DNA from: Candidatus Saccharimonadales bacterium
Lineage (GTDB): Bacteria; Patescibacteriota; Saccharimonadia; Saccharimonadales; JBGSXW01
Length of the DNA: 64,000 bases
Assembly: GCA_041751215.1 (NCBI GenBank)
Contig: JBGSXW010000002.1
Coordinates: 3,123 to 67,122 of the forward strand
Direction: 5' to 3'
Below are positions 18,325-35,081 of this stretch, one piece after another (the stretch's first letter is position 1; each line of letters begins with the position of its first letter). Position numbers and translations under genes: made by a program. Under the pieces are notes generated by a model that saw only the letters and a program-made list of their open reading frames with translations, was not told where the DNA came from and searched no databases.

Positions 18325-18387
18325 AATGGCTTATATTTTACAAGTATCTGGTGAGGACAGGAAAATAGTTGCGAAATTAGTTATTTC

Positions 18388-18402: not shown

Positions 18403-18457
18403 TTTACGAGAAGTTATAGCATACAATCTGTCTGTTAATTCTAAGGTGAAAGACATA

Positions 18458-18826
18458 ATGATACGAACAGATGGTGATATTCAGCACGGACTAGCTCATT
18501 TAATGATTGGTGAGGCTTTTATTGCTAATACGATTGAAAACGATCGCTTTTCGGCTGCACAGCTTGATCAGTTCTTTGGAACCTTTCGAGAAAGTCATAG
18601 AGGCGCGCTTGGTCAGTTTACGACGCGTGCTGCCGAGATAGTTGGTTATGATGAACATCATGAGCTAGACGACTTCGGCCCACACGGTAAGTTTGCAGGC
18701 AAATTATCTCTACGAGAGTCTGGCTTAGCCGTTGTTGAAACTGAACTTCATCATGCCGCCCCAGCAGGGCTTAACGAGGCTTTAAAAGCTTCTTGCGCGA
18801 CTGCCGTAGCCGTACTACGCGGCTAA
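18458..18826 (+). CDS. His-rich hypothetical protein
   Basis: Start taken at Met45 of track ORF 18326..18826, preceded by aaggtgaaag. Scattered His clusters (DIQHGLAH, DEHHELDDFGPHG, ELHH). Confidence 0.45.
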   Translation: MIRTDGDIQHGLAHLMIGEAFIANTIENDRFSAAQLDQFFGTFRESHRGALGQFTTRAAEIVGYDEHHELDDFGPHGKFAGKLSLRESGLAVVETELHHAAPAGLNEALKASCATAVAVLRG

Positions 18827-20503
18827 GGCTAGTGGTTGACGATTGCGAGTTAAAACTAAGAGTATGATCTCGCCAAGCACCTGGGCCATACTCATAGTTT
18901 TATTTGTGGATTGAGTGGATGAGAATTGAGAAAATTCGAAACTGTACTCAATACTGAGGTCTTTTCTGAGTCCATGCAAGATATCGTATGCTTCTTGGTC
19001 AAAGATTAGTTCTTGATCGTCTGAAAATTCCAGCATCTGTGCTAAATCCTCGTAAGTAAGAGAAAGTTTAGCGGCAAGTTCTTCAAGTTTTTCTTTGAGT
19101 GTGGGCGATAAGACTGCTAGCTCATGGGATTCCGTGGTGCCTACTCCCTTAATTAGTTCAAAGATGTCTTCAATGATTTCTTGTACCTCTGGTGCATCCT
19201 CTGGCTCAACAGCAGATATTAATTCCGCAACCACAGCTTGCTGAGCGGGCTTTAACTCTCGTTCTGGAATGACGTTTTGTTCAGTACTCGAAGTCCTGTC
19301 TGGCACTGTGAAAAGCTCTTGTGCGGGTTCTTCAACTTCACTTATTGTGAGATTGTTGGTTGCTCCGGCATCAACAGCTATATCCCACAAGCTTATCTCG
19401 TCATTTTCTGACAGAGCGATAGGTAGCTCGCCAGCTTCAAAGGTAAGATCTTCAACTTCACTTGATTCTTCAACCATAGTTTCGCTGGTCGTGAGAACTT
19501 CTTGCGTGAGCAAGTCAATGTTATCGACATCATTGCTATCAGCCTGTTCAATATCAACAGGTTCCATATCCTCTGATACTGACAGTGTATTAAATTCTAC
19601 GCTGCCCTCGGTTTTTTCCTCACCATCACCATCAGTAATCTCTGCTTGATTGGTTTCGATAGTACTTTTCTGTATTGGTTCCACGGCTTCGATAGCGTCT
19701 GTTTTGCTCCTTTCAACTGGTTTGTTAACCGCAGGTACTTTGGCTTCTTCCCGATTAACCTGTTCCGTTCGTTCGGCTATATTTTGTTTTTCCTTTTCGG
19801 GCATTGATTTGGTGTTACTCTCAACGACTGCTTGAGAGGCCTCGGTAGCATCAATACGTTGCCGTAGGGCTGCATCCATTTCGGGTTTAACGATGGTTGC
19901 TTGTTTGGCGATCTCTACTTCTACCGCAAGGCGTTGTTGGGCTTCTGTAGCATCTACAATCTGTTCTGCGATGGTTTCTGCCGCCGTTTTTTGTTCCTGG
20001 TGAGGTGCTTTTTCTAAATTATCAAATAAAGAATCGGCGTGTTTATCAGCTTGCGGCTGATTATGTTCGCAGTGTGCATCACAGACATGCGGTTTATGTG
20101 CTTCGTGCTGGTGATCGTCAAGTTCTTTTGCTGCTCTGTTGGCGGTTTCTTTATCGGCTGCTATCTTGGCTGGCTCAACTTTTGGTTTGGTTGTCTCGGC
20201 TTCAGGTTTACTGAGATCATTAAAGAGACTGTCAGACATCTCATCTGCTTTAGACTGATGGTGCTCGCAGTTAGGGCCGCAAACATGATCTTTTTCTAGG
20301 TCTGCAAAAAGATCATCACTCATTTCATTGGCTTGCATCTGCGAGTGCTCACAGTCTGGGGTGCAGACGTGTCCTTCAACCCCGTGTGCAGTTTCTAGGT
20401 GGGGGTGATGTTGCGTAGTCTCTGCTTGCTGTTCAACATGAGCCACAGCCTCATGAGCTTCGTGCTGATGGGCTTGCGCTAGAACTTCAGCATTTGCAGG
20501 CAT
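18815..20503 (-). CDS. acidic, His/Cys-repeat putative metal-binding protein
   Basis: 562 aa with a His-rich N-terminus and three repeats of HVCxxxCEHxQxxA(D/N)(E/K)xxDxLFxxL. It has a very acidic middle and a hydrophobic C-terminal segment. Confidence 0.6.
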   Translation of the reverse strand: MPANAEVLAQAHQHEAHEAVAHVEQQAETTQHHPHLETAHGVEGHVCTPDCEHSQMQANEMSDDLFADLEKDHVCGPNCEHHQSKADEMSDSLFNDLSKPEAETTKPKVEPAKIAADKETANRAAKELDDHQHEAHKPHVCDAHCEHNQPQADKHADSLFDNLEKAPHQEQKTAAETIAEQIVDATEAQQRLAVEVEIAKQATIVKPEMDAALRQRIDATEASQAVVESNTKSMPEKEKQNIAERTEQVNREEAKVPAVNKPVERSKTDAIEAVEPIQKSTIETNQAEITDGDGEEKTEGSVEFNTLSVSEDMEPVDIEQADSNDVDNIDLLTQEVLTTSETMVEESSEVEDLTFEAGELPIALSENDEISLWDIAVDAGATNNLTISEVEEPAQELFTVPDRTSSTEQNVIPERELKPAQQAVVAELISAVEPEDAPEVQEIIEDIFELIKGVGTTESHELAVLSPTLKEKLEELAAKLSLTYEDLAQMLEFSDDQELIFDQEAYDILHGLRKDLSIEYSFEFSQFSSTQSTNKTMSMAQVLGEIILLVLTRNRQPLALAA

Positions 20504-21157
20504 TTAGGCAGTAACTTTCTTTTGAGTGGTTAAGAATTCGTTAATATTTAGGCCGACACGGCTTTGTGCTAATAGCTTGATCCGTTCCATCTCACTATCC
20601 TCAACCTCTTTGATAAAGAAACTAAAGAATTGTTTCTTTGAGACAAAATAGGTGGTTATTAGTAAGCGTTGGTATGGTAATACCTCCACGCCAGACTGCT
20701 TGCGTGTCCAGTGCTCAATCTTTGGGGTATGGTCGAACAGTAGCGGGATATTCTTAGAAAAGACTTGCTTACCATCACGTTCTAGCCAGTGAGTGTAAAA
20801 GTTCTCCCAGGTGTCGTATTCAGCAAAAGCATGTGTTTCATCTGGCGTAAAGTTACCAAACCGGTTGCCAAGCTCTTGATTATATCGATCACGAGAAAAT
20901 GCCAAAAATTGCTCCACAGTTGTATCAGGTACATGCTTTACGAGATATTCCTTTATTTCCTTTTTAAAAGGATTAGCAAGCGTTATGGTAAAAGGCTGGA
21001 ACCCAAGCTCATCTGTGCCATTACGGCGCTGCTCAGCGTACTCAGCGTCGCCGACATGCAAAAAACTAACCACCTGCCAATCATGGAATCCGTCCTTGTT
21101 TGGCTTCTCGGTTGCAAAATCGTTCCAAAATAACTGAAATGAATCAAATACTATCAT
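20504..21157 (-). CDS. hypothetical protein (first gene of the operon divergent from the Fur-family gene)
   Basis: 217-aa ORF with no recognised motif. Its stop abuts the start of the 562-aa ORF. Confidence 0.55.
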   Translation of the reverse strand: MIVFDSFQLFWNDFATEKPNKDGFHDWQVVSFLHVGDAEYAEQRRNGTDELGFQPFTITLANPFKKEIKEYLVKHVPDTTVEQFLAFSRDRYNQELGNRFGNFTPDETHAFAEYDTWENFYTHWLERDGKQVFSKNIPLLFDHTPKIEHWTRKQSGVEVLPYQRLLITTYFVSKKQFFSFFIKEVEDSEMERIKLLAQSRVGLNINEFLTTQKKVTA

Positions 21158-21191
21158 ATCTAGTACATTCTAAGAGGTAGTGACTACTTAT

Positions 21192-21206
21192 TGCAAATTA
21201 GTTGCA
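21192..21206. promoter_or_regulatory. Fur/Zur-box-like palindrome
   Basis: TGCAAATTAGTTGCA (arms TGCAA/TTGCA), about 20 nt upstream of the Fur-family ATG in a divergent intergenic region. Confidence 0.55.
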
Positions 21207-21226
21207 TTTTTGATATTATTTGCATC

Positions 21227-21703
21227 ATGGATCAGATTGATAGATTAAAATCTCTACTAACCGAACGCGGGTACAGTATTACTAAGCCTCGCTTAGAGGT
21301 CTTCCGTGTCTTAGCAGCGAATGAGGAGCCACTGAATGTAACTGATATTGTGGCTCGTCTCTCTACTAAGGTAGATAAGGTAAGTATTTACCGCACGATT
21401 GAGCTGTACGAAAAGATTGGCATTGTGCACCGCGTATGGACCGGGTTTAAGAGTAAGGTTGAGCTGAGTGAAGCATTTTCACCTCACCACCATCACTTCA
21501 CATGTATTAAATGTGGAAAAACAACCGGATTGCGAAGTGAGGCACTAGAGAAAGAACTAGAGAATCTTGAGAGTGATCAACACTTTAAGCTGACACACCA
21601 CTCAATTGAACTAAAGGGCTTTTGTGAAGATTGTATAAGGCAAGTTAACATAACTCACGAAAAAGGGAGGGTTGCCCATGCCAGCGGTGTACAAGCCACG
21701 TAA
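21227..21703 (+). CDS. Fur-family metalloregulator (probably Zur)
   Basis: Start taken at Met13 (MDQIDRLKSLL). Winged-helix N-terminus, then HHHFTCIKCGK and GFCEDC metal-site motifs. Confidence 0.85.
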   Translation: MDQIDRLKSLLTERGYSITKPRLEVFRVLAANEEPLNVTDIVARLSTKVDKVSIYRTIELYEKIGIVHRVWTGFKSKVELSEAFSPHHHHFTCIKCGKTTGLRSEALEKELENLESDQHFKLTHHSIELKGFCEDCIRQVNITHEKGRVAHASGVQAT

Positions 21704-21848
21704 ACGAGTAGATCGAGAGGTTTTACAGACGACTGCAAACTCGTCTCAATCAGATGATGTACAGCAGCCAAGAGATAAATCTATAAAAGTACTCGTAGTT
21801 TCCCTGCTTGTGCTTATTGCAGTATTAATTTATCTTATCGCCCAATAA
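21678..21848 (+). CDS. possible small tail-anchored membrane protein
   Basis: 56-codon ORF below the track threshold, with RBS gggagg 7 nt upstream of the ATG. It ends with the hydrophobic VLVVSLLVLIAVLIYLIA and overlaps the fur-family 3' end. Confidence 0.35.
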   Translation: MPAVYKPRKRVDREVLQTTANSSQSDDVQQPRDKSIKVLVVSLLVLIAVLIYLIAQ

Positions 21849-21858
21849 CTAACGAGAT

Positions 21859-22086
21859 TTAGCTGTTCTTGAGTGATGCTTTATATTTTTCTAAAAAGTC
21901 GTCGTAATTGAGGTCGCCAACTTTCTCGGCGTGGAATGCGAAGCGTTCCATGAATTTCAAGAAGCCTACGGCGTAGTTGCGGTTGGCGTTGTTTGAATCG
22001 TGGTACTTCAAATAGTTGATAGTCTTTTCGATTACTTCTTCATCTTCATGAAGGTTACGATCTTTGAATACATCTGCGTCGCTCAT
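21859..22086 (-). CDS. hypothetical small protein downstream of the PLD nuclease
   Basis: 75-aa ORF starting 1 nt after the PLD-like gene stop. Confidence 0.5.
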   Translation of the reverse strand: MSDADVFKDRNLHEDEEVIEKTINYLKYHDSNNANRNYAVGFLKFMERFAFHAEKVGDLNYDDFLEKYKASLKNS

Positions 22087-22087
22087 A

Positions 22088-22552
22088 TCAACTCACTTTC
22101 GTTAGATATCGACTTAGTCCAATAAACTTTATGAGTGTTTCAGCCTCAACGGCCGATACCGTTCGCCTCATTATCTCACAACTATCATAGTACGAAAGAA
22201 TGTTCAGGCTTCCTTCGTAAAATACGGTACGGTCAATGATGGCGATTTTTCGGTGGTGTTTAACGGTAAACAGTACATTTACACCAAGTTCTTGTAATAG
22301 GCCTACTGCACATTCAGCTTGTAGCCTGTATTCTTGGTCATGTTCCTCTGGGTTACGAGTATTGATAACAATCTTTACCCCACGTTGTCGTAGTTTTGTA
22401 ATTAAGGGTACGAGTTGATTTACTCGATTGAACCGAATGAAAGGGCTTTCAATAATCAGGCTGCTGTGCGCCCGCTTAATATCTTTCATGAACTGTTGGT
22501 CAAAGGTCTCTTGATCAAACAGACTTGATGCTACATTTCTACGACCGAACAT
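22088..22552 (-). CDS. phospholipase-D-superfamily (Nuc-like) nuclease, single HKD domain
   Basis: 154 aa. HHRKIAIIDRTVFYEGSLN matches HxK(x)4D...GSxN. Confidence 0.75.
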   Translation of the reverse strand: MFGRRNVASSLFDQETFDQQFMKDIKRAHSSLIIESPFIRFNRVNQLVPLITKLRQRGVKIVINTRNPEEHDQEYRLQAECAVGLLQELGVNVLFTVKHHRKIAIIDRTVFYEGSLNILSYYDSCEIMRRTVSAVEAETLIKFIGLSRYLTKVS

Positions 22553-22688
22553 TTCTTAGCTCCAAATCGGGCAGATATACTTCACCGTCTTTGATGACCA
22601 TGCCTAATGCTTTAAAATTATCTCTGAGCTTAAAAAGATCGTCGAAAAGCGGTTCTAAATTAATACTAGTGAGCTCACCAAAGTAAGC

Positions 22689-22875
22689 CACCCACCTTGC
22701 GTGGGTGTTTTACTTTGGTACGCTCTGCGAGCGTAGAATTCGTAGGGTTCGATAACAACGAGCACGCACAGGAACTACCTCCTAGTTCCGAGCATGCGAG
22801 GAGGTTATACTTCGAGTACTCCCGTAGGGATCACCAATCTAAGGACGCCAGCTTGCTGGTGTTTTTAGATTGGTG
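22689..22875 (+). other. structured intergenic region with two terminator-like hairpins on the + strand
   Basis: cacccac-cttgc-gtgggtg+TTTT (22689-22711). Mutually exclusive hairpins ggaacta..tagttcc and cctcc..ggagg. Nested hairpin caccaatctaa...ttagattggtg (22832-22875) encloses gccag-cttg-ctggt+TTTTT (22847-22866). No + strand gene is nearby. Confidence 0.3.
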
Positions 22876-22890
22876 ACTTTGTGTACGAAT

Positions 22891-23811
22891 CTAGCCTTCT
22901 GGCGCCAAAAACCCGCCAATCGGCATGAACTGAGCTGACCATTCTCTCACCCTGTCGATGTCGTTTTCATCTGGGAGCCCCAGCTTAAGCCCGGCCGTAG
23001 TCCAATATGTGGTATGAGGAAAGCCGAAGTAAAGTTCTTTGGCGGTGTAGTTCGTGAGCGTAAAGTCTGTCCTGTCGGTTACTAAGTCTCCATTTGAGTC
23101 GCGCCAGTTTATTTCCATGAAAGAGTTAGAGCCATCAACTCTAGTAACGATTAGAACAGTTACGTTATCGTCCATAAATACGCCTGTTGCGGGCCACGCT
23201 GTACCCGGGGCGACTCCTGTAGTTGCGCCCCATCTTCGGGGCGTGCCCAAGACGTTGGATATAAGACTTACGGTTGTGCCAATGTAGCCTTGGTGGGCGT
23301 CCCAAGCTGAGCCATTTGTCTGTGCGGAACCATTCGGGAGCCGGCACAACATGGCGCACCAGTAAGGAGTGTCGTATCCGTTCGGGGCATTAAACCATGT
23401 ACTAGAATCTTCAGGATCTAAGTTTGGTGACAGCGTAGAGTGGGCGTCGTGTAAGCCGCCGAACTCCGGTACGTCAAGTTCTGCCAAAAAATCGTGGTAT
23501 GCCGCGGCCCGGCCGTTAAACCTTTGGGAGCCTGGCAAGTAAACTGCACCCGGAAAGGCTGTCTGGCCTACTGTATTTCCCCATGCTCCATTATCTCTTT
23601 GTACAGGCATGTTATTCGTGCCTCTGTCTAAGATTGTCTCAATCCGAGTTGCGGGATCAATGTCCCAGCCAGAGCCATCATCAGCATAGGTCGACGAATC
23701 AGCTACGTCCCAAGAGTGGGTCCAGGCCGTCAGGCTATCCCAGTTGGGCACAGCCACTAGCTGACCGTTAACTGAGAGTGACCCGCCGTTAACAAGTATG
23801 CGCTTTGGCAC
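22891..23811 (-). CDS. hypothetical protein co-transcribed with the tail-fibre-like gene
   Basis: 306 aa, Trp/Gly/Asn/Thr-rich (beta-rich, lectin-like composition). It starts 4 nt after the upstream gene. Confidence 0.5.
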   Translation of the reverse strand: MPKRILVNGGSLSVNGQLVAVPNWDSLTAWTHSWDVADSSTYADDGSGWDIDPATRIETILDRGTNNMPVQRDNGAWGNTVGQTAFPGAVYLPGSQRFNGRAAAYHDFLAELDVPEFGGLHDAHSTLSPNLDPEDSSTWFNAPNGYDTPYWCAMLCRLPNGSAQTNGSAWDAHQGYIGTTVSLISNVLGTPRRWGATTGVAPGTAWPATGVFMDDNVTVLIVTRVDGSNSFMEINWRDSNGDLVTDRTDFTLTNYTAKELYFGFPHTTYWTTAGLKLGLPDENDIDRVREWSAQFMPIGGFLAPEG

Positions 23812-23814
23812 TTT

Positions 23815-24990
23815 TTATGCCCCTGGCTCAAAATCTACTAATAATACTTCTGACACGACATCATTGTTTGAAACGGCTTCGCCGGTAGCAAACAGGCTGT
23901 TAGCGCTCGAGAGTGTAGCGGCGACTGTCGTGAAGTTTGTGAGGACTGAAGTATTGTAAAACAGTGTGCCAACACAGTCTTGAGTGGTCGCTCCGGTTCG
24001 TGTGATGCTCACCTCTGCTCGCCACGAACCAGCCACAGAAGTAGGAAGAGCTCCACTGTCAAGGATGGTCGTTGCACCAAACTTAATTCGGATTCGCTTT
24101 GCGTTGGCGTTGTTTGCGAATGTGCCCTGAAAACGACCCCGAACAGTGTCCCCGTTAGTAGCTAACGTGTTTGCTATAACAGAGAAGGTTTGCAGGTTAT
24201 CTTCGCCGCCACCGACATTGCCAACCGCAGTAACGCTATGTCCGATACGGCCAGGGAGACTGGCGTAAGACCCCAAAATGTAGATGTTAGCCATAACGCC
24301 CGCCCTTAGTCTGCCAATGAACGCGTCGGGTGCGGTCGTGCCAGCGCCAAATCCTATAAAGCCAACCGAGCCAAATGCACTGGCGATTGCTATTGAGGGA
24401 TGAGCGTCGGTACTGTTTTTATACAAAGTCAGACGTATGTCGTCAGCAACCCCACCATTAAAGCTCTCGATAGCCACTCTTCGCCCTCCGCTGTTAGTGA
24501 ACGTTTGGCTGGTTGTTCCAAAAGCTTTTTTAGCGGCACCAGACACGGCAATGACATCATCAGAATCCATAAGCACGGCATTGCCATCCTCAACACCCAC
24601 AATAGTGTCGGTCGTGTCAGGGTTAGTTGCTGCTGGCAGGTCGGCAATTTCCGTTGCGTCGTCTAATACGGCATCGATGTCAGCTTGTGTCGCCAGGTCG
24701 CTGGTGTCAGCAATACCGTGCACATCGTTCGTTGTATTGCTGTGAGTGGTTAAGTTGCTAGCGACGGTCGCTGCTGCTCCAGCCGAGTCAAAGTCACCGG
24801 TATCAGCTGTTGCGGCGCTGCCTAGGCCAAGGTTATTGCGAGCCTGCGGTGCTGTAGTCGCGCCTGTTCCCCCTTTGGAAATGCCGACTCGTTTCAGCGA
24901 CCCGTCGGGGTTATGGGACGTTTTTAAAAATGCATTGAGGATCTCACCCCAGTTTCCAGTATCTCCCCCAGGCTTTGGCAGTCTTGGCAT
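23815..24990 (-). CDS. phage tail-fibre-like protein
   Basis: 391 aa. The N-terminal LPKPGGDTGNWGEILNAFL and GGTGATTAPQARNNLGLGSAA resemble N-terminal motifs of phage tail fibres; the remainder is Gly/Thr/Ala-rich. Confidence 0.55.
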   Translation of the reverse strand: MPRLPKPGGDTGNWGEILNAFLKTSHNPDGSLKRVGISKGGTGATTAPQARNNLGLGSAATADTGDFDSAGAAATVASNLTTHSNTTNDVHGIADTSDLATQADIDAVLDDATEIADLPAATNPDTTDTIVGVEDGNAVLMDSDDVIAVSGAAKKAFGTTSQTFTNSGGRRVAIESFNGGVADDIRLTLYKNSTDAHPSIAIASAFGSVGFIGFGAGTTAPDAFIGRLRAGVMANIYILGSYASLPGRIGHSVTAVGNVGGGEDNLQTFSVIANTLATNGDTVRGRFQGTFANNANAKRIRIKFGATTILDSGALPTSVAGSWRAEVSITRTGATTQDCVGTLFYNTSVLTNFTTVAATLSSANSLFATGEAVSNNDVVSEVLLVDFEPGA

Positions 24991-25118
24991 CAGAACCCTC
25001 CACAGTTCTTAGGTCTCGGCTTTAAACGCACCTCTATCACAAACCACGTCTCTTGTGGGGTAATTATATCACGGTAATAACATAAGCTTTTAGGCGAATA
25101 ATTGTCGTTAGCCGACTA

Positions 25119-25147
25119 TTGTAAAAACCCTTAAGGCATGGCATAAT
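25119..25147 (+). promoter_or_regulatory. candidate sigma70-type promoter for the small-membrane-protein cassette
   Basis: TTGTAA (25119-25124), a 17-nt spacer, then CATAAT (25142-25147), in low-GC DNA just upstream of the GC-rich genes. Confidence 0.3.
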
Positions 25148-25264
25148 ACTTGCGATTCACTTTGTGGGCAACTACAGAGGCGAAAGTAGATCTGAGGAGA
25201 CAACCTCAACCAAGATCTTTCCATCGAACGACTAAACACGTTCACTGACAGTTGGGAGTAAACA

Positions 25265-25600
25265 ATGCACTACACCCTGATGAAGCACTTCAAGATGAAG
25301 GAGGACGGTTTCGTCGACTTCGGTCACAGCGCCTCGGTCCTCTTCATGGGTTTCATGACGGTCTTCGGTCCGTGCGTGATCTTTTTGGTCGCGCTGCCCT
25401 CGTTCGCTTACGCGACTGTTGAAGGCGGTGCGTTCTGGTTCATGCTGCTCACCGCCGCTCTCTGCTTGGTGGCGTACCTCGCCGCCCTCAGCGTCTTGAA
25501 GCTGGTGATGTTCACCATCGCCTGCTACATGGCCTGCCGCGAGGAGTTCATCAAGAAGATGCTCAACGAGAGTCGTTCATCCGAACGGTTCGATTCCTGA
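25265..25600 (+). CDS. small membrane protein 1 (GC-rich cassette)
   Basis: 111 aa with RBS gggag, hydrophobic helices and strong G/C at third codon positions. Confidence 0.6.
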   Translation: MHYTLMKHFKMKEDGFVDFGHSASVLFMGFMTVFGPCVIFLVALPSFAYATVEGGAFWFMLLTAALCLVAYLAALSVLKLVMFTIACYMACREEFIKKMLNESRSSERFDS

Positions 25601-25613
25601 GATTGGAGCAGCA

Positions 25614-25892
25614 ATGTCCGAAGTCAAGCAGTCCGAAAAGTACAAGAATGCCTACAGATCGGGCGTCCGTAGCTCGCTCATCTCGGCCTCTGTTGCCCTG
25701 ATGATGCTGTACTGGGCGCTCACCCCCACCCCGAATGTCACCGAGAAGATGCAGGTCAACACGTGGCTGCTGTTCGCAGTTGTCGCGGCGGGCTTCTTTT
25801 GCACAGTCTTGCTGGCCATCGGAAACTGGATCCTCGCCGAAGTCGCCAAGATGCACGAGTCCGACAGCGAGCCTGTCAACAAGTCCAACTGA
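25614..25892 (+). CDS. small membrane protein 2 (GC-rich cassette)
   Basis: 92 aa with RBS ggag, two hydrophobic helices, an N-terminal KQSEKYKNAYRSGV and strong GC3. Confidence 0.6.
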   Translation: MSEVKQSEKYKNAYRSGVRSSLISASVALMMLYWALTPTPNVTEKMQVNTWLLFAVVAAGFFCTVLLAIGNWILAEVAKMHESDSEPVNKSN

Positions 25893-25909
25893 ACGATCGG
25901 AGCAGATCA

Positions 25910-26188
25910 GTGACAGCAAAGATCAACCCGGAGAAATACAACGACTGCAAAGATGGTGTCCTCGAGTCGCTCTTCTCGGCCTTCATTTTTGGGGGTTTTG
26001 CCGCAATCACGTTGGGACTTGCAGTTACGGGCGATGCCGAAGACTCTGGTAGCCCGCAATGGGTTCCCTGGGTGCTCTTCGGCCTGCTGACCATCGCGGT
26101 CATCTGGTTGCTGTTGCGGGCGTACTACTACCGCATCAGGATGATCGACATCAAGTCCGGCGAGGAGGCTTCAGCCACCGAGCAGTAG
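25910..26188 (+). CDS. small membrane protein 3 (GC-rich cassette)
   Basis: GTG start preceded by ggag, inside track ORF 25763..26188. The N-terminal KINPEKYNDCKDGV parallels protein 2. Two hydrophobic helices. Confidence 0.5.
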   Translation: MTAKINPEKYNDCKDGVLESLFSAFIFGGFAAITLGLAVTGDAEDSGSPQWVPWVLFGLLTIAVIWLLLRAYYYRIRMIDIKSGEEASATEQ

Positions 26189-26217
26189 CACTACGCGCAA
26201 CATCGATTGGAGGTCGA

Positions 26218-26478
26218 ATGAGTGGCCACAACTACCCGCGAACAAGTGGCGAGTACGTACGGATCGCTGCGTTGTGGAAGCTGACGGGGCGTACCTTCAC
26301 GGGGGCTGCGCTGTTCAGCTTCGTCCTGCTGATTGCCATGTGGGGCAACTTCAGTTTCGTGGCGCGGCTTATCCAGATCGTCTTGGTTCTGACATACCTC
26401 GTAGGCCTTGCTACCTGCTTGGTGCGCTACGTAGTCAACATGAACCGAGCCTTTCCCGAGGAAACGCCAAACAACTGA
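26218..26478 (+). CDS. small membrane protein 4 (GC-rich cassette)
   Basis: ATG preceded by ggagg, inside track ORF 26059..26478. Two hydrophobic helices. Confidence 0.5.
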   Translation: MSGHNYPRTSGEYVRIAALWKLTGRTFTGAALFSFVLLIAMWGNFSFVARLIQIVLVLTYLVGLATCLVRYVVNMNRAFPEETPNN

Positions 26479-26660
26479 GAGCTGGGCGGGATCGCTGCAA
26501 ATACTGGGCGATCCCGCACCACCAGCCTCACATCCAATAACTCCCAACTGTCAATTCACTTCAGAAATTGTGTAATTTCTCTGATGAGTCCCCGGCCTCC
26601 GCAACTACTGCGGCGGGCAGGCGCCAGGACGAAAAGTGAACAACATGTTACAATACATTC

Positions 26661-27401
26661 ATGAAAAGTTTGCAAGATTTAGGCTTTGAGCTTGGTGGAG
26701 ACGAGGCGCACCTTCAAAAGGTTGCCCCAGAAGACATAAACCCCGAGCGGTTTTTTGATCAGGCCGAGCCGTTACTCGAAGAATTGAGTGAATCAGTCTT
26801 AACTGAAGTCGTGCCCAACCTCGAAGACTATGAGGGGCGCTGGCACCCACTTGGTTTTATGATCTACCCATTAGGAGTGCATGAGGGCTTAGGTTCGTTG
26901 CGTCTCCATATATGGCCGGCTGGACATAGGGTTTCTATTGACGGCGGCTCGGGCATTCATGATCACGCTTGGTATCTTGCTTCGCGAGTACTCGCGGGTG
27001 TGTATTCTGACGATCGTTACGATGTTGAACTTATGCCAGATAAAGCACCAGAAGGTGATTTATCAGAACCTTTTTTTCGGGTTTTTGGGGTTACAAAAGT
27101 TCCTGGCGAACCAGACGGCCTAAGAACTGATGGCACCTACGCACGTGCGCAAGTTTTCGATCAAGTGTTGGTACCGGCGGGCTTAACTCACCGGATTGAA
27201 CCGGGCGCATTTCATCTGCCAACAATTTCTGAAGGACAGCTGGCGGCAACGTTGGTCCTAGATTCTCCAAGCTTGGGCTTTAAACCAAGCATTTTGATCA
27301 ACAGATCGTCTGAGCCCATCTTTAACCCAAGACCAGCGGTTCACGAGTCCGAAGCCCTTCAGGTAAAAGATCAGATATTATCCGACCAACAAAGCAGCTA
27401 G
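26661..27401 (+). CDS. hypothetical protein, possibly cupin-like
   Basis: 246 aa with His cluster LHIWPAGH...GIHDHAW. Its codon usage resembles the backbone rather than the flanking GC-rich DNA. Confidence 0.55.
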   Translation: MKSLQDLGFELGGDEAHLQKVAPEDINPERFFDQAEPLLEELSESVLTEVVPNLEDYEGRWHPLGFMIYPLGVHEGLGSLRLHIWPAGHRVSIDGGSGIHDHAWYLASRVLAGVYSDDRYDVELMPDKAPEGDLSEPFFRVFGVTKVPGEPDGLRTDGTYARAQVFDQVLVPAGLTHRIEPGAFHLPTISEGQLAATLVLDSPSLGFKPSILINRSSEPIFNPRPAVHESEALQVKDQILSDQQSS

Positions 27402-27588
27402 TTAATACTTAAGCTTGCTACTTGCGCGAGTTACTTAGATAATTATCCAGATTGGATGGGACCAAAGGACTTTAACAGTGCCAGGTTGGACGAGTCGCCT
27501 TTTTAATAAGAGACCGCTCCCCCGACCTGGCAAAGGGTAATTGGGAAACAAATCGCCCAGACATGGGCCAAACCGAAAGGAGAGGCCC

Positions 27589-28328
27589 GTGGCCTCACGC
27601 AATTGGATAGAGCTCAACGCAGCGGCGCAAGCTGCTGGTCGGCACGTCTGTGCTGGCATCGACCTCGACCTGAGCAAGCTGCCGGCTGGACTGGAGACTC
27701 CAGAAGGTCAGCTGTCGGCATGGTGGATCGCACCGGAGTCGACGCCATCACGATCACCCCGTACATGGGGCGGATCAAAGGGCTGCAACCGTTCCTCGAT
27801 CGGGCCGACAAGGGCGCGATCGTGCTCTGCCGGACCAGCAATGCCGGCGGTGCCGAGACGCAGGACATCCCCTGTGTGCCCCTGTTCGATCCCGACACGG
27901 AGCAGTTCTACGCGAGCGAGCGTCACTACGAGCTCGAGAACGGTCACCCGCCCACGGTGCTCATGAACGATGCGATGCGTATGCCGTACTACAAGTACAT
28001 CGCCTACCGTGTGACCAGCGCGTGGAACGCCAACGGCAACTGCGTGATGGTGGTCGGCGCGACGGTTCCGGAGGAGATGGTCGAGATCCGCAAGATCGCC
28101 GGCAACATGCCGTTGCTCATTCCGGGCATCGGCAAGCAAGGCGGCGACCTCAAGTCGGCGGTGCTCTCGGGCATCGACAGCGAGGGTCAGGGCATCATCG
28201 TGAACAACAGCTCCGCGCTGACGTTCGCGTCCGATGGGCCGGACTACGCCGATGCTGCGGCCAAGGTGGCCGAAGGAATGCACAAGGAGATCACGGAGAT
28301 CATCGCCCAGCACCTCGCTGCGGCCTGA
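27589..28328 (+). pseudogene. pyrF: orotidine-5'-phosphate decarboxylase (type 2 pyrF), apparently disrupted
   Basis: A GTG start after aaggagag gives ...HVCAGIDLDLSKLP (the N-terminal substrate-binding motif) in one frame. From ~27720 the homology continues in another frame (GVDAITITPYMG, VLCRTSNAGG, LLIPGIGKQGGD). The ~55-aa segment that should carry DxKxxD is absent. Confidence 0.55.
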
Positions 28329-28345
28329 ACGACCTAGGAGGTCAC

Positions 28346-29041
28346 ATGGGAGCAATCTACGACGCCCTGGTGGAGAATGATGGCATCCACTTGGGTGGCC
28401 ACTTCATCTACACCAGCGGCGTCCACGTCGAGCGCTACCACAACGTGCGCTGGTCGGCCTGCGACAACGACACCATGTCGATGATCGCGTCAGACATGGT
28501 CGACCCGCAGTGGGCTGGTCAAGTCGACGTCGTCTTCGGTCCAGAGACCTTGGGTCGGACTTTCGTGGATCGAGTTGGCCAGGCAGCGTCGCAACAAGGC
28601 GTTACTGGCCTGAAGGTCATGTGGTGCCAGATCGTCAAGCACGATGACGGCACTCGTGAGGTGCGCTTGCCAGACGAAGAGATGTACGGCTTCAGCCGTT
28701 ACCTCAAGCCTGGTGCCAAGGTGTGGATCATCGACGACGTGCTGTCCAAGGGCACGACTTCCCTCTTGGTCCTCAACTTCTTGCGCGCATTCGGCGTTGA
28801 AATCGTCGGTGTTTCGGCTGTGCTTCGGCTCAACCAGACGGTGACGGCGAAAGTGCTGGGTGTCCCTGCGCTGCAATTCCTCGAAGACGTCGTCGGCGTC
28901 GAGATGCTCAGCGAAGCCGAGTGCCAGGAACGCGGCATGTGCTCGCGCAACGAGCCGATCGTGCTCAAGCCCGGTCACGGATTCGAGTACCAGATCGAGC
29001 ACCCCGATTACCCCGGAGGATACGTCGATCTCGATCGATGA
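28346..29041 (+). CDS. type I phosphoribosyltransferase (orotate PRTase-like)
   Basis: ATG after ggaggtcac inside track ORF 28022..29041. PRPP-binding loop KVWIIDDVLSKGTTS, with strong GC3. Confidence 0.7.
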   Translation: MGAIYDALVENDGIHLGGHFIYTSGVHVERYHNVRWSACDNDTMSMIASDMVDPQWAGQVDVVFGPETLGRTFVDRVGQAASQQGVTGLKVMWCQIVKHDDGTREVRLPDEEMYGFSRYLKPGAKVWIIDDVLSKGTTSLLVLNFLRAFGVEIVGVSAVLRLNQTVTAKVLGVPALQFLEDVVGVEMLSEAECQERGMCSRNEPIVLKPGHGFEYQIEHPDYPGGYVDLDR

Positions 29042-29306
29042 CACCTCTTTGTCCTATCCGACCTTGCCGGTCGATACTTTTCCCTTTTGGGATTTGTGTC
29101 GGCCGGCTTTCTCTTTGGCCGCTCTTCAGCGCGAATCAACGTGGCCCAGTCGCCTGGCACAGCCAGTCGTGACGGCCACTCTGCGTCACGTGCTCTGTTG
29201 CTCGCCAGCAGTACTTTCGTGTGTACAACTGAGCTCTGCTACTCGCACCTTCCTTGTGCTTCATCACTGAAGAGACGCCCAAACTAACCGAGGGTTGGCT
29301 ACTAAT

Positions 29307-29520
29307 TGGTTTATTACTACTGCCGCCGCGTCTAGTAAAACCTCTGAACTTGTAAGGACAGAACCTGGCGTGACGAGGACTGTCCGCCAGCTGGCGGACG
29401 GACTCCGCAGTCACCCAAGTTCTGTCTGAAGCAAGTTCATGAGTGTTTTGGTAGTAGCGGGATAGTTTTGGGGCACCTTTTCTAAAAAGGCGCCACTACC
29501 CTCGCCGGGAGCGACAAGCA
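29307..29520. repeat. structured repeat, copy A (inverted relative to copy B)
   Basis: Core 29337-29516 aligns to the reverse complement of 43146-43317. It folds as a long hairpin plus two short hairpins and begins a few nt beyond the response-regulator stop. Confidence 0.7.
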
Positions 29521-29524
29521 AAGA

Positions 29525-29956
29525 CTAACTAGTTGGTCCGGTAGCTGGCCCCTGCGATTGCTCGGGCACTTCCCCGAACTTCTCGATCTGCTTGATCAGC
29601 TCGACTAGTTTGCGCGGTGTAATATCAGCTTTAATCAAATATCCATCGGCTCGCTCTTCGATTGCAGCTCGGGTTTTTTCGTCCTGGTCGAGGTTGGTCG
29701 TAACTACTACCTTGGTGTTTGGTAGTCCTTGTCCATCAACACCGCGGATCTTGTTAAGCACCTCAATACCGGTCATGTCGGGAATCATAAGGTCTAGTAG
29801 AACTAGGTCGTACTTTCCGGTTTGCGCCATTTCCAGACCCTTAGGACCAGTAATCACCTCATCGACTTCATAACCAGCCCGGCGCAGCGCCCGAGCGTAG
29901 AGTTCGCTGATAAAGCGATCATCTTCGATACATAGAATGGTTTTTAATCCAGCCAT
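29525..29956 (-). CDS. single-domain response regulator (CheY-like receiver)
   Basis: 143 aa with ILCIEDD, DLVLLDLMIPDMTG and a YLIK-type lysine region; there is no output domain. Confidence 0.85.
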   Translation of the reverse strand: MAGLKTILCIEDDRFISELYARALRRAGYEVDEVITGPKGLEMAQTGKYDLVLLDLMIPDMTGIEVLNKIRGVDGQGLPNTKVVVTTNLDQDEKTRAAIEERADGYLIKADITPRKLVELIKQIEKFGEVPEQSQGPATGPTS

Positions 29957-31448
29957 GAGCCCCTCTTATAATTGCACCGTTATTATCGGTTGTTTTAAGT
30001 TTATCGGCAACCGAAGTATAAGTTGGCAGATCAAAGCCAAAAGTAGCTCCCTGCCCCTCGGTTGAGCGCACCCAGATGTTGCCGCCGTGACCCTCGACAA
30101 TCGCCTTAGACAAGTATAATCCAAGCCCTGTCCCGCCAACGTTCTCGCGTGAGCGATGCGATCGGTAGAATTTATCAAACAACTTGCCGATAACAGACTC
30201 TGGTATGCCGATGCCAAAGTCTTGAACGGTGGTTTCGATCATGCCGTCTTTTTCATAGGTACTTACAATAATCTGACCACCGTCGGGGCTGTACTTAATG
30301 GCGTTGTCTATTAGGTTGCTCAACACCTCATAAATGCTAACTCGGTCGGCGGCCACGGTTGGCATTTGTTGAGGCATCTTAAGTAGTAGTTTGCGGTTAC
30401 GCACCGCTGCTCGCAGCGCAAAGTCCTGAGCTGCTCCTTTGATAGTTTCGAGCCAGTTTTCTTCTTGCAGGTGAACAGTCATCTGCTCGTTTTCGATCTT
30501 AACAGCACTTAGGATGTTGTTAACAAAAGTGGCCAGCTGCGCGGCCGAGGCGGTCATTTTATACATAAACTGCTTCTGCTCGGCATCAAGGCCTGGGCCT
30601 AATTCGTCTTCAAATAACTCAATGTAGCCGCGGAGCGCAGTAATCGGTGTCCGAAGTTCGTGAGCCGCCAGCGAGACAAAGCTAACTTCTGATTCGTCTG
30701 ACGCGTAGAGTTTAGTGTGGTCAAATAACACCAGAACGACCTCTAGGCCTTCGCTGTCATTCTTACTAAAGGTTGCGATTAAATCAAACATTCGGTTGGA
30801 CTGATCTTGCATTGTCAGCTTGACCCGCTCCCATGTGCGCATGGTCTTTATGCTGCTTTTTTGGCATTCATCTAGCCAGCTGTTTAGGGTTACCGATTCA
30901 AGAAAGCTAAGGTTGTAGATTGCACTAAAGTCTTGGCCAACAACTTGATCAACTTTTTCACCAACATATTTGTTAGCGGCTAAGTTGTGGTAACGAATTT
31001 TCTTGTCTTTATCAAGAACCAGAATCGGGGTAGGAATTGTGCCAAGCAGTGCACCCATGTAGCTATGCTCAGAGGATAGTCGTTGATTTAATTTTTGCTG
31101 CCCACTGGCAATGTCATAAATCGTGCCGATCGCCTGGTTAAGCAACTGTCGGCCATACAGCGACGAAGTTATGTCGGGTGCGGCAGTCTCGCCGTTTTCA
31201 GAGCTAACGTGCATGATAGCTTGGGTTAGCAGCTCCATTGGTTTCGTTAGAGTTTTGCTGATTAACAATGCAAATATTAAGCTCACTACGGCTCCGATTA
31301 TCACTCCGGCCGAGATGGCGATAAGCGGTGCAACCTCTATGACGTAGGCCATGACGTACCAGGATATTGATACAACGCTGGATACGATTAGATAACTGGC
31401 AATCGAGATGCTGGTGGTCTGTGACTTATAGTTTCCAAGGGATATCAT
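29919..31448 (-). CDS. sensor histidine kinase
   Basis: Start taken at Met16 (a 4-nt ATGA-type overlap with the upstream gene). Two TM helices, H-box SLAAHELRTPITAL and G-box GTGLGLYLSKAIVEGHGG. Confidence 0.85.
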   Translation of the reverse strand: MISLGNYKSQTTSISIASYLIVSSVVSISWYVMAYVIEVAPLIAISAGVIIGAVVSLIFALLISKTLTKPMELLTQAIMHVSSENGETAAPDITSSLYGRQLLNQAIGTIYDIASGQQKLNQRLSSEHSYMGALLGTIPTPILVLDKDKKIRYHNLAANKYVGEKVDQVVGQDFSAIYNLSFLESVTLNSWLDECQKSSIKTMRTWERVKLTMQDQSNRMFDLIATFSKNDSEGLEVVLVLFDHTKLYASDESEVSFVSLAAHELRTPITALRGYIELFEDELGPGLDAEQKQFMYKMTASAAQLATFVNNILSAVKIENEQMTVHLQEENWLETIKGAAQDFALRAAVRNRKLLLKMPQQMPTVAADRVSIYEVLSNLIDNAIKYSPDGGQIIVSTYEKDGMIETTVQDFGIGIPESVIGKLFDKFYRSHRSRENVGGTGLGLYLSKAIVEGHGGNIWVRSTEGQGATFGFDLPTYTSVADKLKTTDNNGAIIRGAHGWIKNHSMYRR

Positions 31449-32503
31449 GGCCGGTATTGAACCGGGCTGCCTGGACTGACCGCCGTAACCCAAGTTTGAC
31501 CTGGATTTAAGCTGATCGGCTGCCCACCCCCTGTTTTAAATCTAAACTGACCACCACGTGCATTGCGAGTCCAGACGCCCTTTATTACTCGGCCGTCCTG
31601 AAAAATTGTGACCTTTCCGGTGCCAACTAGATCGTAGTGCCAGCGGCTGTTGGCTGTGCCACCATTTTGAAACTGCATAGCGATAACCACGCTTGGTGCC
31701 AGTTGCTGCTTGGTCTGAGCGTCTCTGTGAATCTGTCCTCCAACCCAGCGCTTGTAGGTGTTGGTTTTGCGATCGTACTGATAACGCACATCGTAAAGAG
31801 TCGAAGATATTGGGATGTTAATTGTACGTGCAGTTACCTTGCCTTCAGGATTAGCTTCTTTGCGCGGCCAAGATATAAAGTCACTAGTTTTGTAGCCTTT
31901 TTGCTTCATTAGCTTATCGAGATAACCACTGGTGGTATAGACGTTATGCGGAGCATAGCGGTGAGTAGCCCGCCAGTAAGCCTGGGGGTTCTGGAACTGA
32001 TCCAGATCTTTCATCTTGAACTTTTGTGCTTGAACTTGCGCTCTTAAGCTCCCACCGACATGGGCTACGGCGGCATCAAAGGCTAGCGCCCAATCTATGA
32101 AATAAGGACGCATGCTACGAACCGGGCCAATTGGTTGATGTCGATTTTCTTGCCACAGAGTCATGAAGCGGGTGATTCCGCCTTCGGCAATGGCTTCAAA
32201 CACGACTCCAGCCTTGTGCAGACCTGACTGAGGGCGCGCATCGGGGCTGTTCTCAATAACTATTCCGATCACTGGTCGGCGCGCGGCCGCCGGCGAAACC
32301 TGAACTCCGGTAAGCGGCGAGGCTACAGTTGTTGGTTCTTGTTCGGTGCTGTTTGTATCGGTATCGGTGCGAGCGACCGTGTCGTTTGAGCGCATAACTA
32401 GAGCAGTTACTCCCCCACCGAGCAGTAAAATGAGTACAGCAACTATTAGGACTGTTCGTTTTTTATGACTGCGAATCCAGTCCGCAATCTGCTTACGCTT
32501 CAT
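31445..32503 (-). CDS. DUF3048 (YerB-like) secreted/lipoprotein-type protein
   Basis: 352 aa with an N-terminal TM/signal segment. GIVIENSPDARPQSGLHKAGVVFEAIAEGGITRF matches my recollection of the DUF3048 family. Confidence 0.65.
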   Translation of the reverse strand: MKRKQIADWIRSHKKRTVLIVAVLILLLGGGVTALVMRSNDTVARTDTDTNSTEQEPTTVASPLTGVQVSPAAARRPVIGIVIENSPDARPQSGLHKAGVVFEAIAEGGITRFMTLWQENRHQPIGPVRSMRPYFIDWALAFDAAVAHVGGSLRAQVQAQKFKMKDLDQFQNPQAYWRATHRYAPHNVYTTSGYLDKLMKQKGYKTSDFISWPRKEANPEGKVTARTINIPISSTLYDVRYQYDRKTNTYKRWVGGQIHRDAQTKQQLAPSVVIAMQFQNGGTANSRWHYDLVGTGKVTIFQDGRVIKGVWTRNARGGQFRFKTGGGQPISLNPGQTWVTAVSPGSPVQYRP

Positions 32504-32516
32504 GCAGATGAGTATA

Positions 32517-33971
32517 TCAAGATGAGTGGGCGCGCGCCAGGGGTATTGTCAGGGCGTGCTCGAGTTGTTTTAGGCTGCGGTCTTTGCCTAGTAAGTTAAG
32601 CGTTTCGGCCAGGCCAGGGCTAGAAGGACTCCAGGTGACACAGATTCGGATTAGGCTAAACAAGACTGCCGGCTTTTGGTTGGTTTTTTCTAACAGCTCG
32701 TTTAAGCCAGCAACCAAACTGTTCTCAGAAAAATCATTGTCTTTAAGCATAGCCACCGCTTCGCTAAGCAACGACTTTAGCTCGGTCTCAGGCAGTTTTT
32801 TAAGTTGCTTGTGAGAGCTTATTAAATCAAGATTAGGCTCAAGGTCCTCAAAGAAAAAGCTAGAAAGCGCTGGTAGTTCGGCAAAGTGTTTAAGTCGATC
32901 TTGTAAGAGCGCTAAAACTCGGCGCTTGTAATCATCGGGAAATTCTTCGGCTGATTCTGGCCAGAAGCTTTGTACTAATTTGTAGAGCTCATCGATCGAG
33001 GCTTTTCGAACATGGGCACCTTGCAGCCAAGACAGCCGGGTTTCGTCAAAACGGGAGCCGTTTTTTTGGATTCGCTTCATGTCAAACTTGCTAATTAGTT
33101 CTTCAGTTGTAAAAACCTCTTGTTCGGTTCCGTCGTTCCAGCCAAGTGTGGCTAAAAAGTTCATCATGGCAGCCGGCAAATAGCCTTGCTCTCGGTAATC
33201 TAGGATATCTTTTGCCCCGTCTCGCTTAGATAGTTTTTTGTTTCCGGTTGGTCCAAGAATGTGTGGCACGGTGCCCATTATTGGCGGTGTAACTCCAAGG
33301 GCTTCGTAGAGATTCAAATAAATTGGCGTGCTAGCAATAAATTCTTGTCCTCGAATGATGTGAGTTATCTCCATATCGACATCATCAACAATGTGCGAGA
33401 AGTTGTAGGTCGGGTAGCCATCGGACTTAACTAGAATGAAGTCATCTATTACTTCCGGACCAGTCGATAAGTCGCCCATGACCTCGTCATGCCAGTTATA
33501 GTTTTTTGGGTCAGACTTAAAGCGCAGCGGCTGGGTTCCGTCCCATTCGGGAGGATTTTCTGGCCGATGATTGCGATACAGAAACGGCTTTTTGGTTGCC
33601 TGGGCTTCTTCACGGAACTTCTGTACTTCTTGTGCACTGTACGGGTCGGCGTAAGCTCGGCCCTGTTCAACTAGCTTTTTAGCCCACTCCTGGTAGCGAT
33701 CGAGTCGCTCGCTTTGGCGGTACGAACCATGCTTGCCGGGTTTATCAAAACCCTCTTCCCAACCGATGCCAACCCAGCGCAAAGATTCGGCGATGTGGGC
33801 ATCGGCACCAGCTACTTCTCGTTTCTTGTCGGTGTCCTCGAGCCGGAGTATGAACTGTCCGTCTCCTTGCTTGGCGATTAGCCATGCAAATAAAGCGGTG
33901 CGAACTCCGCCAACGTGCAAATAGCCAGTTGGGCTGGGTGCGAATCTAGTGCGGACAGATTGGTTGCTCAT
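32517..33971 (-). CDS. gltX: glutamate--tRNA ligase
   Basis: 484 aa with RFAPSPTGYLHVGG (HIGH) and KLSKRDG (KMSKS). Confidence 0.95.
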   Translation of the reverse strand: MSNQSVRTRFAPSPTGYLHVGGVRTALFAWLIAKQGDGQFILRLEDTDKKREVAGADAHIAESLRWVGIGWEEGFDKPGKHGSYRQSERLDRYQEWAKKLVEQGRAYADPYSAQEVQKFREEAQATKKPFLYRNHRPENPPEWDGTQPLRFKSDPKNYNWHDEVMGDLSTGPEVIDDFILVKSDGYPTYNFSHIVDDVDMEITHIIRGQEFIASTPIYLNLYEALGVTPPIMGTVPHILGPTGNKKLSKRDGAKDILDYREQGYLPAAMMNFLATLGWNDGTEQEVFTTEELISKFDMKRIQKNGSRFDETRLSWLQGAHVRKASIDELYKLVQSFWPESAEEFPDDYKRRVLALLQDRLKHFAELPALSSFFFEDLEPNLDLISSHKQLKKLPETELKSLLSEAVAMLKDNDFSENSLVAGLNELLEKTNQKPAVLFSLIRICVTWSPSSPGLAETLNLLGKDRSLKQLEHALTIPLARAHSS

Positions 33972-34011
33972 ATCAGATAAGTATCGGCGATTTAGCAGAT
34001 TTGGGCAAGTT

Positions 34012-35007: not shown

Positions 35008-35081
35008 CCCTTACCCGTTAAAAAAGACGCTTATGATCTGCTTAACAGCTTAGAATAAACCAGTCTCAGTTACAAGCTACT

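Follow-up and report, generated by a model that had tools for sequence, protein, structure and literature searches.

Organisation of the locus

Within a 64-kb stretch of contig JBGSXW010000002.1 (assembly GCA_041751215.1), here called the window, two GC-rich blocks of genes lie between about 25.2 and 29.3 kb, separated by a single gene of ordinary codon usage (Table 1). Block 1 comprises four tandem plus-strand genes, all of them encoding hydrophobic membrane proteins of small size and each preceded by a separate ribosome site; block 2 holds a structured leader, a pyrF pseudogene and an intact pyrE-like gene; and single-gene patches of the same character occur at about 41 and 57 kb. On balance, the region seems to be an accretion zone of small, horizontally acquired cassettes which share one codon usage rich in G and C at third positions (GC3) and foreign to a resident genome of about 0.48 GC, of the type found in the candidate phyla radiation (CPR, Patescibacteria) and in Saccharibacteria. 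Its pyrF-pyrE pair would be decaying, and the donor would be a GC-rich pool that has so far escaped sampling.

Table 1. Features of the two blocks, the single-gene patches and the neighbouring DNA (window coordinates)
Feature	Coordinates	Strand	Description
Left inverted-repeat arm, block 1	25244-25261		ACTGACAGTTGGGAGTAA; perfect 14-nt core TGACAGTTGGGAGT at 25246-25259
Gene A	25265-25600	+	111 aa, hydrophobic small membrane protein; GC3 0.85
Gene B	25614-25892	+	92 aa, small membrane protein; GC3 0.83
Gene C	25910-26188	+	92 aa, GTG start, small membrane protein with two transmembrane (TM) segments; GC3 0.75
Gene D	26218-26478	+	86 aa, small membrane protein; GC3 0.75
GC-rich hairpin closing the four-gene operon	26487-26520	+	GCGGGATCGC...GCGATCCCGC; no U tail
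Right inverted-repeat arm, block 1	26538-26555		TAACTCCCAACTGTCAAT; core at 26540-26553
Intervening gene	26661-27401	+	246 aa; backbone-like codon usage, GC3 0.44
Conserved leader of the pyrF-pyrE operon	27418-27588	+	76-79% identical to contig L083 (1-185)
pyrF pseudogene (type-2 orotidine monophosphate (OMP) decarboxylase)	27589-28328	+	ancestral GTG start at 27589
pyrE-like type I phosphoribosyltransferase gene	28346-29041	+	intact, 231 aa; GC3 0.77
GC-rich non-coding tail after pyrE	29042-29325		GC 0.53-0.58; small terminator-like hairpin at 29059-29073
Repeated element of about 175 nt	29326-29501		95-nt near-perfect long hairpin plus short hairpin; inverted copy at 43163-43328
41-kb patch	41439-42218	+	single gene, GC3 0.70; codon usage as in blocks 1 and 2
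57-kb cassette	57337-58159	-	gene at 57451-58047, GC3 0.82-0.84; own ribosome site; hairpin at 57382-57422
Repeat-end sequences			TGACAGTTGGGAGT and AACACGGAAAGCT
Conjugative / type IV secretion island	1-22600		GC 0.44; identities read from translations, not from domain searches
Serine recombinase gene (island)	350-1759		
ParB-like gene (island)	1761-2645		
VirD4-like gene (island)	6685-9258		
Possible CHAP-type hydrolase gene (island)	9262-9798		
VirB4-like gene (island)	9795-11558		
VirB6-like gene (island)	12662-14131		
Pilin-like gene (island)	14140-14481		

Base composition and codon usage

A gene set was built for the whole window, which has an overall GC content of 0.48, and the six block genes were compared with the 53 other genes and with the 33 core genes to the right. 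In 1-kb windows the GC content is 0.57 at 25.5-26.5 kb, dips to 0.49 at 26.5-27.5 kb and reaches 0.62 at 27.5-29.0 kb. The six block genes, which occupy 25265-29041, have GC3 values of 0.75-0.88, as against a mean of 0.473 (sd 0.048, maximum 0.56) for the 53 others; this corresponds to z-scores of 5.7-8.4 relative to these genes and of 6.8-10.2 relative to the core genes. Frame-resolved analysis revealed third-position peaks of 0.8-0.9 whose phase switches gene by gene, the pattern expected of genuine coding DNA that is strongly biased in GC3. Measured against the profile of 29.5-64 kb, the tetranucleotide distance peaked at 0.555 at 27.5-29.0 kb, the median being 0.27.

Relative synonymous codon usage (RSCU) correlates at r = 0.63-0.86 among block 1, block 2 and the 41- and 57-kb patches, and at r = 0.70-0.88 between the patches and two related contigs (L083 and L084, see below), compared with r = 0.14-0.21 between the patches and the core genes, although any GC3-rich gene sets would correlate to some degree. 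In both composition and codon usage the patches are significantly atypical of the resident genome.

An earlier note on this DNA had described two compositionally distinct blocks, a backbone-like gene between them and similar single-gene patches near 41 and 57 kb, all of which was borne out by the values given here and in Table 1. It had also spoken of a backbone of lower GC. The blocks do stand out, but the backbone is itself heterogeneous, consisting of the 0.44-GC island (1-22.6 kb) and a core of 0.49 GC from 29.5 kb, with a segment of 0.52-0.53 at 22.9-25.0 kb. The ribosome sites and hairpins which the note had taken as typical of Actinomycetota are indeed present, GGAG-type sites being readable upstream of all six block genes and the hairpins lacking a U tail, but neither is diagnostic of that phylum.

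Block 1 and the inverted repeats

Block 1 is bracketed exactly by an 18-nt inverted repeat, matched at 16 of 18 positions around its perfect core, the left arm of which also holds the ribosome site of gene A. The pentanucleotide TTCAC abuts both outer repeat ends (25241-25245 and 26555-26559), the right copy being offset by one base. At the 57-kb patch the arms of a 19-nt inverted repeat (17/19) occupy 57337-57355 and 58141-58159 and frame the gene, and nothing convincing as a target-site duplication was found there. Both patches have terminal repeats where a mobile insertion cassette would have them, and no inverted repeat brackets block 2 or the 41-kb patch. When the nine repeats of such quality in the window were placed at random, the probability that at least two of the four patches would be bracketed, within 150 nt outside both ends, was about 3e-5. 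A further 18-nt inverted repeat with two mismatches (41002-41019 and 42660-42677) spans the 41-kb patch; it was not counted as a bracket because both arms lie inside the flanking coding regions. Direct repeats serving as att sites around block 1 were considered and rejected, the flanks being dissimilar beyond the inverted repeat.

The hairpin that closes the operon has a folding energy of -30.5 kcal/mol (z = -5.2). Among the four proteins, B and C are weak paralogues (31% identity, E = 0.002) and A and D show weak similarity (27% identity, E = 0.02), these being the only similar pairs within the block. None of the four belongs to a Pfam, NCBIfam, PHROG or PADLOC family, protein B giving only a sub-threshold match to DUF5518. 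An exhaustive HMMER search with protein A of 1.84 billion representative proteins returned protein A itself and one marginal match (E = 1.6e-5). Collections of 50,697 phage records and 72,556 plasmids, queried by tblastn, contained no match to any of A-D, and scans of viral contigs with protein A, the neighbouring tail-fibre-like protein and the pyrE family yielded nothing useful. As far as these comparisons can tell, block 1 is not assignable to any lineage, and they lend no support to descent from a group that has been heavily sequenced, host-associated Actinomycetota for example.

On L084, the JGI contig carrying the second-closest pyrF, a 78 amino acid protein with two TM segments (392-628, GC3 0.86) is encoded ahead of pyrF, at a distance of about 400 nt. 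Its architecture is that of the block 1 proteins, with no detectable sequence similarity to them.

The pyrF-pyrE module of block 2

The leader contains a hairpin of 22-25 bp (27479-27532), the pairing of which is kept by compensatory changes (5/13 pairs) in contigs L084 (903-952) and L085 (603-651). A second hairpin covers the ribosome site, and the fold has a z-score of -3.8. Rfam gave chance-level matches only and no family. Possibly the leader is a regulatory RNA of pyrimidine salvage that has not been described before.

The closest relative of the window pyrF is P0014 on Logan contig L083 (run SRR27710318), an intact gene for a 320 amino acid protein, behind which a pyrE-like gene begins. 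Compared with it, the window gene retains an N-terminal remnant (to about 27711, some 41 codons, 80% nucleotide identity), then shows a deletion and frameshift at about 27712-27728, where adjacent gaps of 27 and 196 nt amount to a net loss of 223 nt, and resumes in another frame with the C-terminal 202 codons (27720-28328; 70% nucleotide and 62-63% amino acid identity, GC3 0.88). The motifs KPNLAFY and ILDAKxGDI, present in L083, L084, L085 and locus L003, are deleted, and the match to TIGR02127 is confined to profile positions 108-257 of 261, its score of 94.5 lying below the cut-off of 110.6; the product is not a full-length catalytic OMP decarboxylase. Since the 223-nt loss removes catalytic motifs and shifts the frame, the gene is a pseudogene, and the route from orotate through OMP to uridine monophosphate (UMP) is consequently broken. 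At GC3 0.88 the remnant shows no sign of drift towards the lower GC content of the genome.

The pyrE-like protein possesses a phosphoribosyl pyrophosphate (PRPP) motif, VWIIDDVLSKGTT, and a Cys-rich C-terminal extension ending in HPDYPGGY. It scores 32.1 bits against PF00156, above the cut-off of 26.3, and so has the motif and fold of a phosphoribosyltransferase, while falling below the equivalog cut-offs of TIGR00336 (33.2 bits vs 106.8) and TIGR01367 (28.6 vs 150.25). A family profile gave matches to solved orotate phosphoribosyltransferases (E = 3e-8 to 5e-9), the best being short enzymes of 180-190 amino acids such as 2p1z and 5hkf, which are from actinobacteria. Specificity for orotate is suggested by linkage to pyrF, the two genes being adjacent in 46 of the 80 fetched loci. 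Exact-sequence look-ups found no record of the pyrE-like protein, and literature searches on Saccharibacteria with pyrE or orotate returned nothing relevant. The right edge of block 2 lies somewhere within the GC-rich tail.

Relatives and phylogeny

Of 7,865 pyrF relatives scored, the best 120 were considered. The named sequences among them belong to Komeilibacteria, Liptonbacteria, Uhrbacteria, Paceibacterota and other Patescibacteria, with Lysobacteraceae next in order and no representative of Actinomycetota. The CPR sequences are 53-57% identical to the window protein and those of Lysobacteraceae 49-52%, and in a metagenome scan with the pyrF alignment the best of the matches listed were 47-49% identical. 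The best solved structure scored 87 bits, and 3v75, a Streptomyces OMP decarboxylase, 20.7 bits. In the neighbour-joining tree, the method used for both genes, the window, L083, L084 and L085 form a clade (bootstrap 100/100) in a CPR-dominated radiation, no Actinomycetota pyrF being close enough to enter the data set. Lysobacteraceae appear as the sister of this clade with a bootstrap of 34/60, a placement which may reflect GC-driven amino acid bias.

For the pyrE-like protein, one genome from each of 185,579 species was scanned, in a collection that does not hold the window's own genome. The best matches are to three metagenome-assembled genomes (MAGs) of Saccharibacteria (39, 37 and 34% identity), then to an Acidimicrobiales MAG (32%), and then to further Saccharibacteria and Patescibacteria. 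The tree places the window sequence in a clade of Saccharibacteria MAGs and two unbinned sequences, with the Acidimicrobiales sequence outside.

Members of this clade are GC-richer than the DNA around them, and in at least three other Saccharibacteria MAGs the related genes stand out as GC-rich islands. Gene and locus GC are 0.58/0.48 in L003, 0.63/0.49 in L004 and 0.57/0.47 in L005, and the elevation amounts to 0.04 in L007 and 0.09 to 0.14 in the other members. Among the pyrF relatives, L085 has a gene of 0.59 GC amid flanks of 0.41-0.51, and L083 and L084 are 0.58-0.64 throughout. In more distant CPR homologues, gene GC matches that of the genome. The pyrF-pyrE pairs of L003, L004 and L005 stand in differing genomic contexts.

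Assembly support

The assembly was compared with contigs of the independent Logan assembly of run SRR28170463, made with a different assembler. Contig L001 (17.7 kb in full) is identical (100%) to window positions 16218-28427 and joins DNA of the secretion island to block 1, the intervening gene, the leader, pyrF and part of pyrE in one piece, thereby spanning three of the four composition junctions, at 25.2, 26.6 and 27.5 kb. Contig L002 equals 29401-38893, again at 100% identity. The Logan contigs leave a gap between 28427 and 29401, so that the interval of 28.4-29.4 kb is represented by the NCBI assembly alone. The break at 29401 falls within the repeated 175-nt element. On L083, from another sample, leader, pyrF and pyrE are continuous across the point corresponding to 28427.

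Single-gene patches, repeated element and neighbouring genes

The 41-kb protein has no family or solved-structure match, neither it nor the 57-kb protein has a PADLOC or PHROG family, and tblastn of the plasmid collection found a match for neither. The 198 amino acid 57-kb protein bears CxDxR and HxxCG motifs reminiscent of beta-class carbonic anhydrases, and the product of the neighbouring gene (56518-57318) bears CVDGR and DCG motifs; neither has a Pfam match. A single-sequence AlphaFold2 model of the 57-kb protein was unusable (predicted local distance difference test, pLDDT, 32.8).

The two copies of the 175-nt element are 86-87% identical, each between convergent genes, and the long hairpin has a folding energy of -63.5 kcal/mol (z = -8.1). 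Rfam gave chance-level matches only, and no copy was found in the fetched loci.

The protein of the intervening gene has no Pfam family and only a weak cupin / cysteine-dioxygenase-like PHROG match. The GC-rich cassettes start just past the right side of the secretion island. Between the two, on the minus strand, lie two tail-fibre-like genes (22891-24990, GC 0.52-0.53) without a Pfam family. One of them (23815-24990) encodes a 391 amino acid protein with weak tail-fibre PHROG matches (E = 9e-7). Over its first 35 residues this protein shows 60% identity to proteins of Streptomyces phages (E = 6e-4), and nothing else seen in the region points to the gene pool of actinobacteria. Within the island, a reverse-transcriptase-like gene (5693-6680) is split into two overlapping frames, 5693-6289 and 6276-6680, and is probably frameshifted; a brief SQSV repeat forms its end. 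The 3' end of gene 4055-4945 holds a segment of about 104 nt (4827-4930), of which a second copy, 87-88% identical, lies 417-420 nt further downstream (5244-5350). All window proteins that were looked up are singletons at 90% identity.

Origin of the cassettes

In the sequence of events which we consider the most probable, block 1 (25244-26555) would be a self-contained operon inserted as a discrete unit between the arms of its 18-nt repeat, either as a mobile insertion cassette devoid of a transposase or by insertion into a palindromic target. Block 2 (about 27418-29325) would be an orotate-salvage module in which the leader precedes pyrF and the pyrE-like gene, and which, when intact, would convert orotate and PRPP to OMP and then to UMP. 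It would belong to a lineage of pyrF-pyrE pairs circulating among Saccharibacteria and the rest of the CPR and, in close relatives, GC-richer than the resident genome; the 223-nt deletion suggests that the cassette is decaying here. The donor, possibly common to all four patches, would be a GC-rich, unsampled pool and not a sequenced Actinomycetota host.

Several observations weigh against this account. Insertion is deduced from the geometry and not from a sister genome or an empty site. The inverted repeats are short, and the window holds nine of such quality where shuffled sequences hold about six; the block 1 core has no further copy in the window or in 168 other loci, the cassettes contain no transposase, and no cognate one was found. 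Among the proteins of block 1 and the 41- and 57-kb patches, protein A was the one searched against the large protein collection. The junction at about 29.3 kb lies outside the independent assembly, and part of the RSCU correlation, as stated above, is common to GC3-rich genes of any kind. That the backbone is a Saccharibacterium is presumed from the context, namely the type IV secretion island, a sortase, the relatives of the cassettes and core-protein matches among mostly CPR loci. Finally, identities of only 34-39% within the pyrE clade are a poor fit to recent spread from one pool; high GC could instead have been maintained in the pyrF-pyrE genes over the long term.

This deep divergence keeps alive the explanation that the pair is an old, vertically inherited possession of Saccharibacteria, with GC3 kept high in situ by a gene-specific force such as biased gene conversion at a recombination hotspot or selection on the mRNA, the other patches being unrelated. 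The clade is composed of Saccharibacteria and unbinned sequences only and is GC-elevated in every member in spite of its divergence, and the leader hairpin has been conserved through compensatory changes. Vertical descent is nevertheless unlikely, since the pair occupies differing genomic positions in L003, L004, L005 and the window, unrelated window genes without known relatives have the same codon usage, the non-functional pyrF remnant still has a GC3 of 0.88, and more distant CPR homologues conform to their own genomes. A high-GC gammaproteobacterial donor of the Lysobacteraceae type, outside the CPR, is suggested by the pyrF sequences of Lysobacteraceae, Luteimonas and Marilutibacter, the only named non-CPR entries among the best 120, and by their sister position in the tree; with so low a bootstrap, an identity below that of the CPR sequences, the artificial grouping of GC-rich sequences that amino acid bias can produce, and a pyrE-like partner devoid of any such affinity, we regard it as very unlikely. 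A chimeric assembly had to be excluded according to the earlier note. Such a chimera of assembly or binning, with stretches of DNA from a GC-rich organism wrongly joined to the contig, is contradicted at three of the four junctions, the right junction of block 2 being the one represented by the NCBI assembly alone; the 17.7-kb Logan contig passes without interruption through block 1 into pyrE, the break at 29401 coincides with a repeated element, L083 preserves the order of the module in another sample, and inverted repeats bracket two of the patches. As each patch is 0.8-1.9 kb long with backbone on both sides, two precise mis-joins would be needed for every one; a chimera is highly improbable.

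The earlier note had favoured capture of DNA from the Actinomycetota host of the epibiont. The base composition (GC 0.57-0.64, GC3 0.75-0.88), the GGAGG sites and the U-less GC-rich hairpins would fit many Actinomycetota, as would the Streptomyces phage match of the neighbouring tail-fibre-like protein, the pyrE-like relative in an Acidimicrobiales MAG and the actinobacterial source of 2p1z and 5hkf; a GC content in this range, however, fits many phyla. The note had named beforehand, as the outcome that would speak against its proposal, best matches and phylogenies inside the CPR, and this is what was found for block 2: the closest relatives are not Actinomycetota, neither tree nests the window gene in a clade of that phylum, the pyrE-like protein falls in a clade with Saccharibacteria as its only named members, and the Streptomyces structure scores far below the best solved chain. 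Protein A, for its part, has no credible relative in the 1.84 billion representatives, in spite of the heavy sequencing of Actinomycetota, and neither the plasmid and phage searches with A-D nor the plasmid searches with the 41- and 57-kb proteins produced a match. For the cassettes without relatives, an Actinomycetota donor is unsupported, if still conceivable, and host capture appears quite unlikely overall. What survives of the proposed host-to-epibiont transfer is that the blocks are foreign and arrived, as it seems, as discrete cassettes.

Returning to entry from an unsampled pool, composition by itself leads to a host-derived story which the sequence evidence contradicts, the best-characterised cassette having its source in the gene pool of the CPR itself. 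Two-step salvage of orotate to UMP appears to be a portable module that reduced epibionts acquire and lose, caught here in decay, and the inverted-repeat brackets suggest a concrete route by which very small cargo may enter tiny genomes. The common codon usage points to a GC-rich reservoir not sampled by public databases and is a testable lead for tracing the gene flow or the partners of uncultured Saccharibacteria. A bolder and rather doubtful extension is that Saccharibacteria are repeatedly seeded from such a pool, be it a community of mobile elements or an unrecognised partner lineage, by way of tiny, transposase-less inverted-repeat cassettes with pyrF-pyrE and its leader RNA as recurrent cargo, GC-rich in at least four divergent lineages. 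If this were true, such cassettes could be used to trace gene flow in the CPR or the partners of CPR bacteria.

Comparison with known systems

Integron gene cassettes are likewise small and poor in promoters, mostly hold a single gene and carry inverted-repeat signals at the borders. The cores found here, GTTGGGA and TCCCAAC, are each one base off the consensus GTTRRRY / RYYYAAC; the arms flank the cassette, whereas attC lies at its 3' end; and no integron integrase (IntI) was seen in the window, where the serine recombinase is the sole recombinase among the recognised genes. This interpretation was rejected.

With the pyrF-pyrE pair of CPR, block 2 has in common the adjacency of the two genes, the order of which varies between loci, the retained PRPP motif and nearest relatives in CPR/Saccharibacteria. 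It differs in that the window pyrF lacks the catalytic N-terminal half, that the pyrE-like protein has a Cys-rich extension and lies far under the curated cut-offs, and that the window clade is GC-rich relative to the resident genomes.

Compared with horizontally acquired islets in general, the units are tiny (0.8-1.9 kb), several separate insertions share a codon usage, the borders lack both an integrase and a tRNA, and the donor has no name. They resemble such islets in the break of composition at whole genes or operons, in having their own translation and termination signals, in carrying relative-less or accessory genes, one of them already decaying, and in their position next to a conjugative / type IV secretion island.

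Mobile insertion cassettes, or cargo-bearing elements resembling miniature inverted-repeat transposable elements (MITEs), have terminal repeats of insertion sequence (IS) type and passenger genes, and lack a transposase; MIC231 of Bacillus cereus is an example. Unlike these, the two bracketed patches have differing repeats, the direct repeat is one base off on one side, the 64-kb window holds no second copy or cognate IS, and transposition is deduced from the sequence. The likeness lies in passenger genes placed exactly between 18-19-nt inverted repeats in block 1 and the 57-kb patch, in the TG...CA termini of the block 1 repeat core, in the possible 5-bp direct repeat TTCAC and in the same lack of a transposase.

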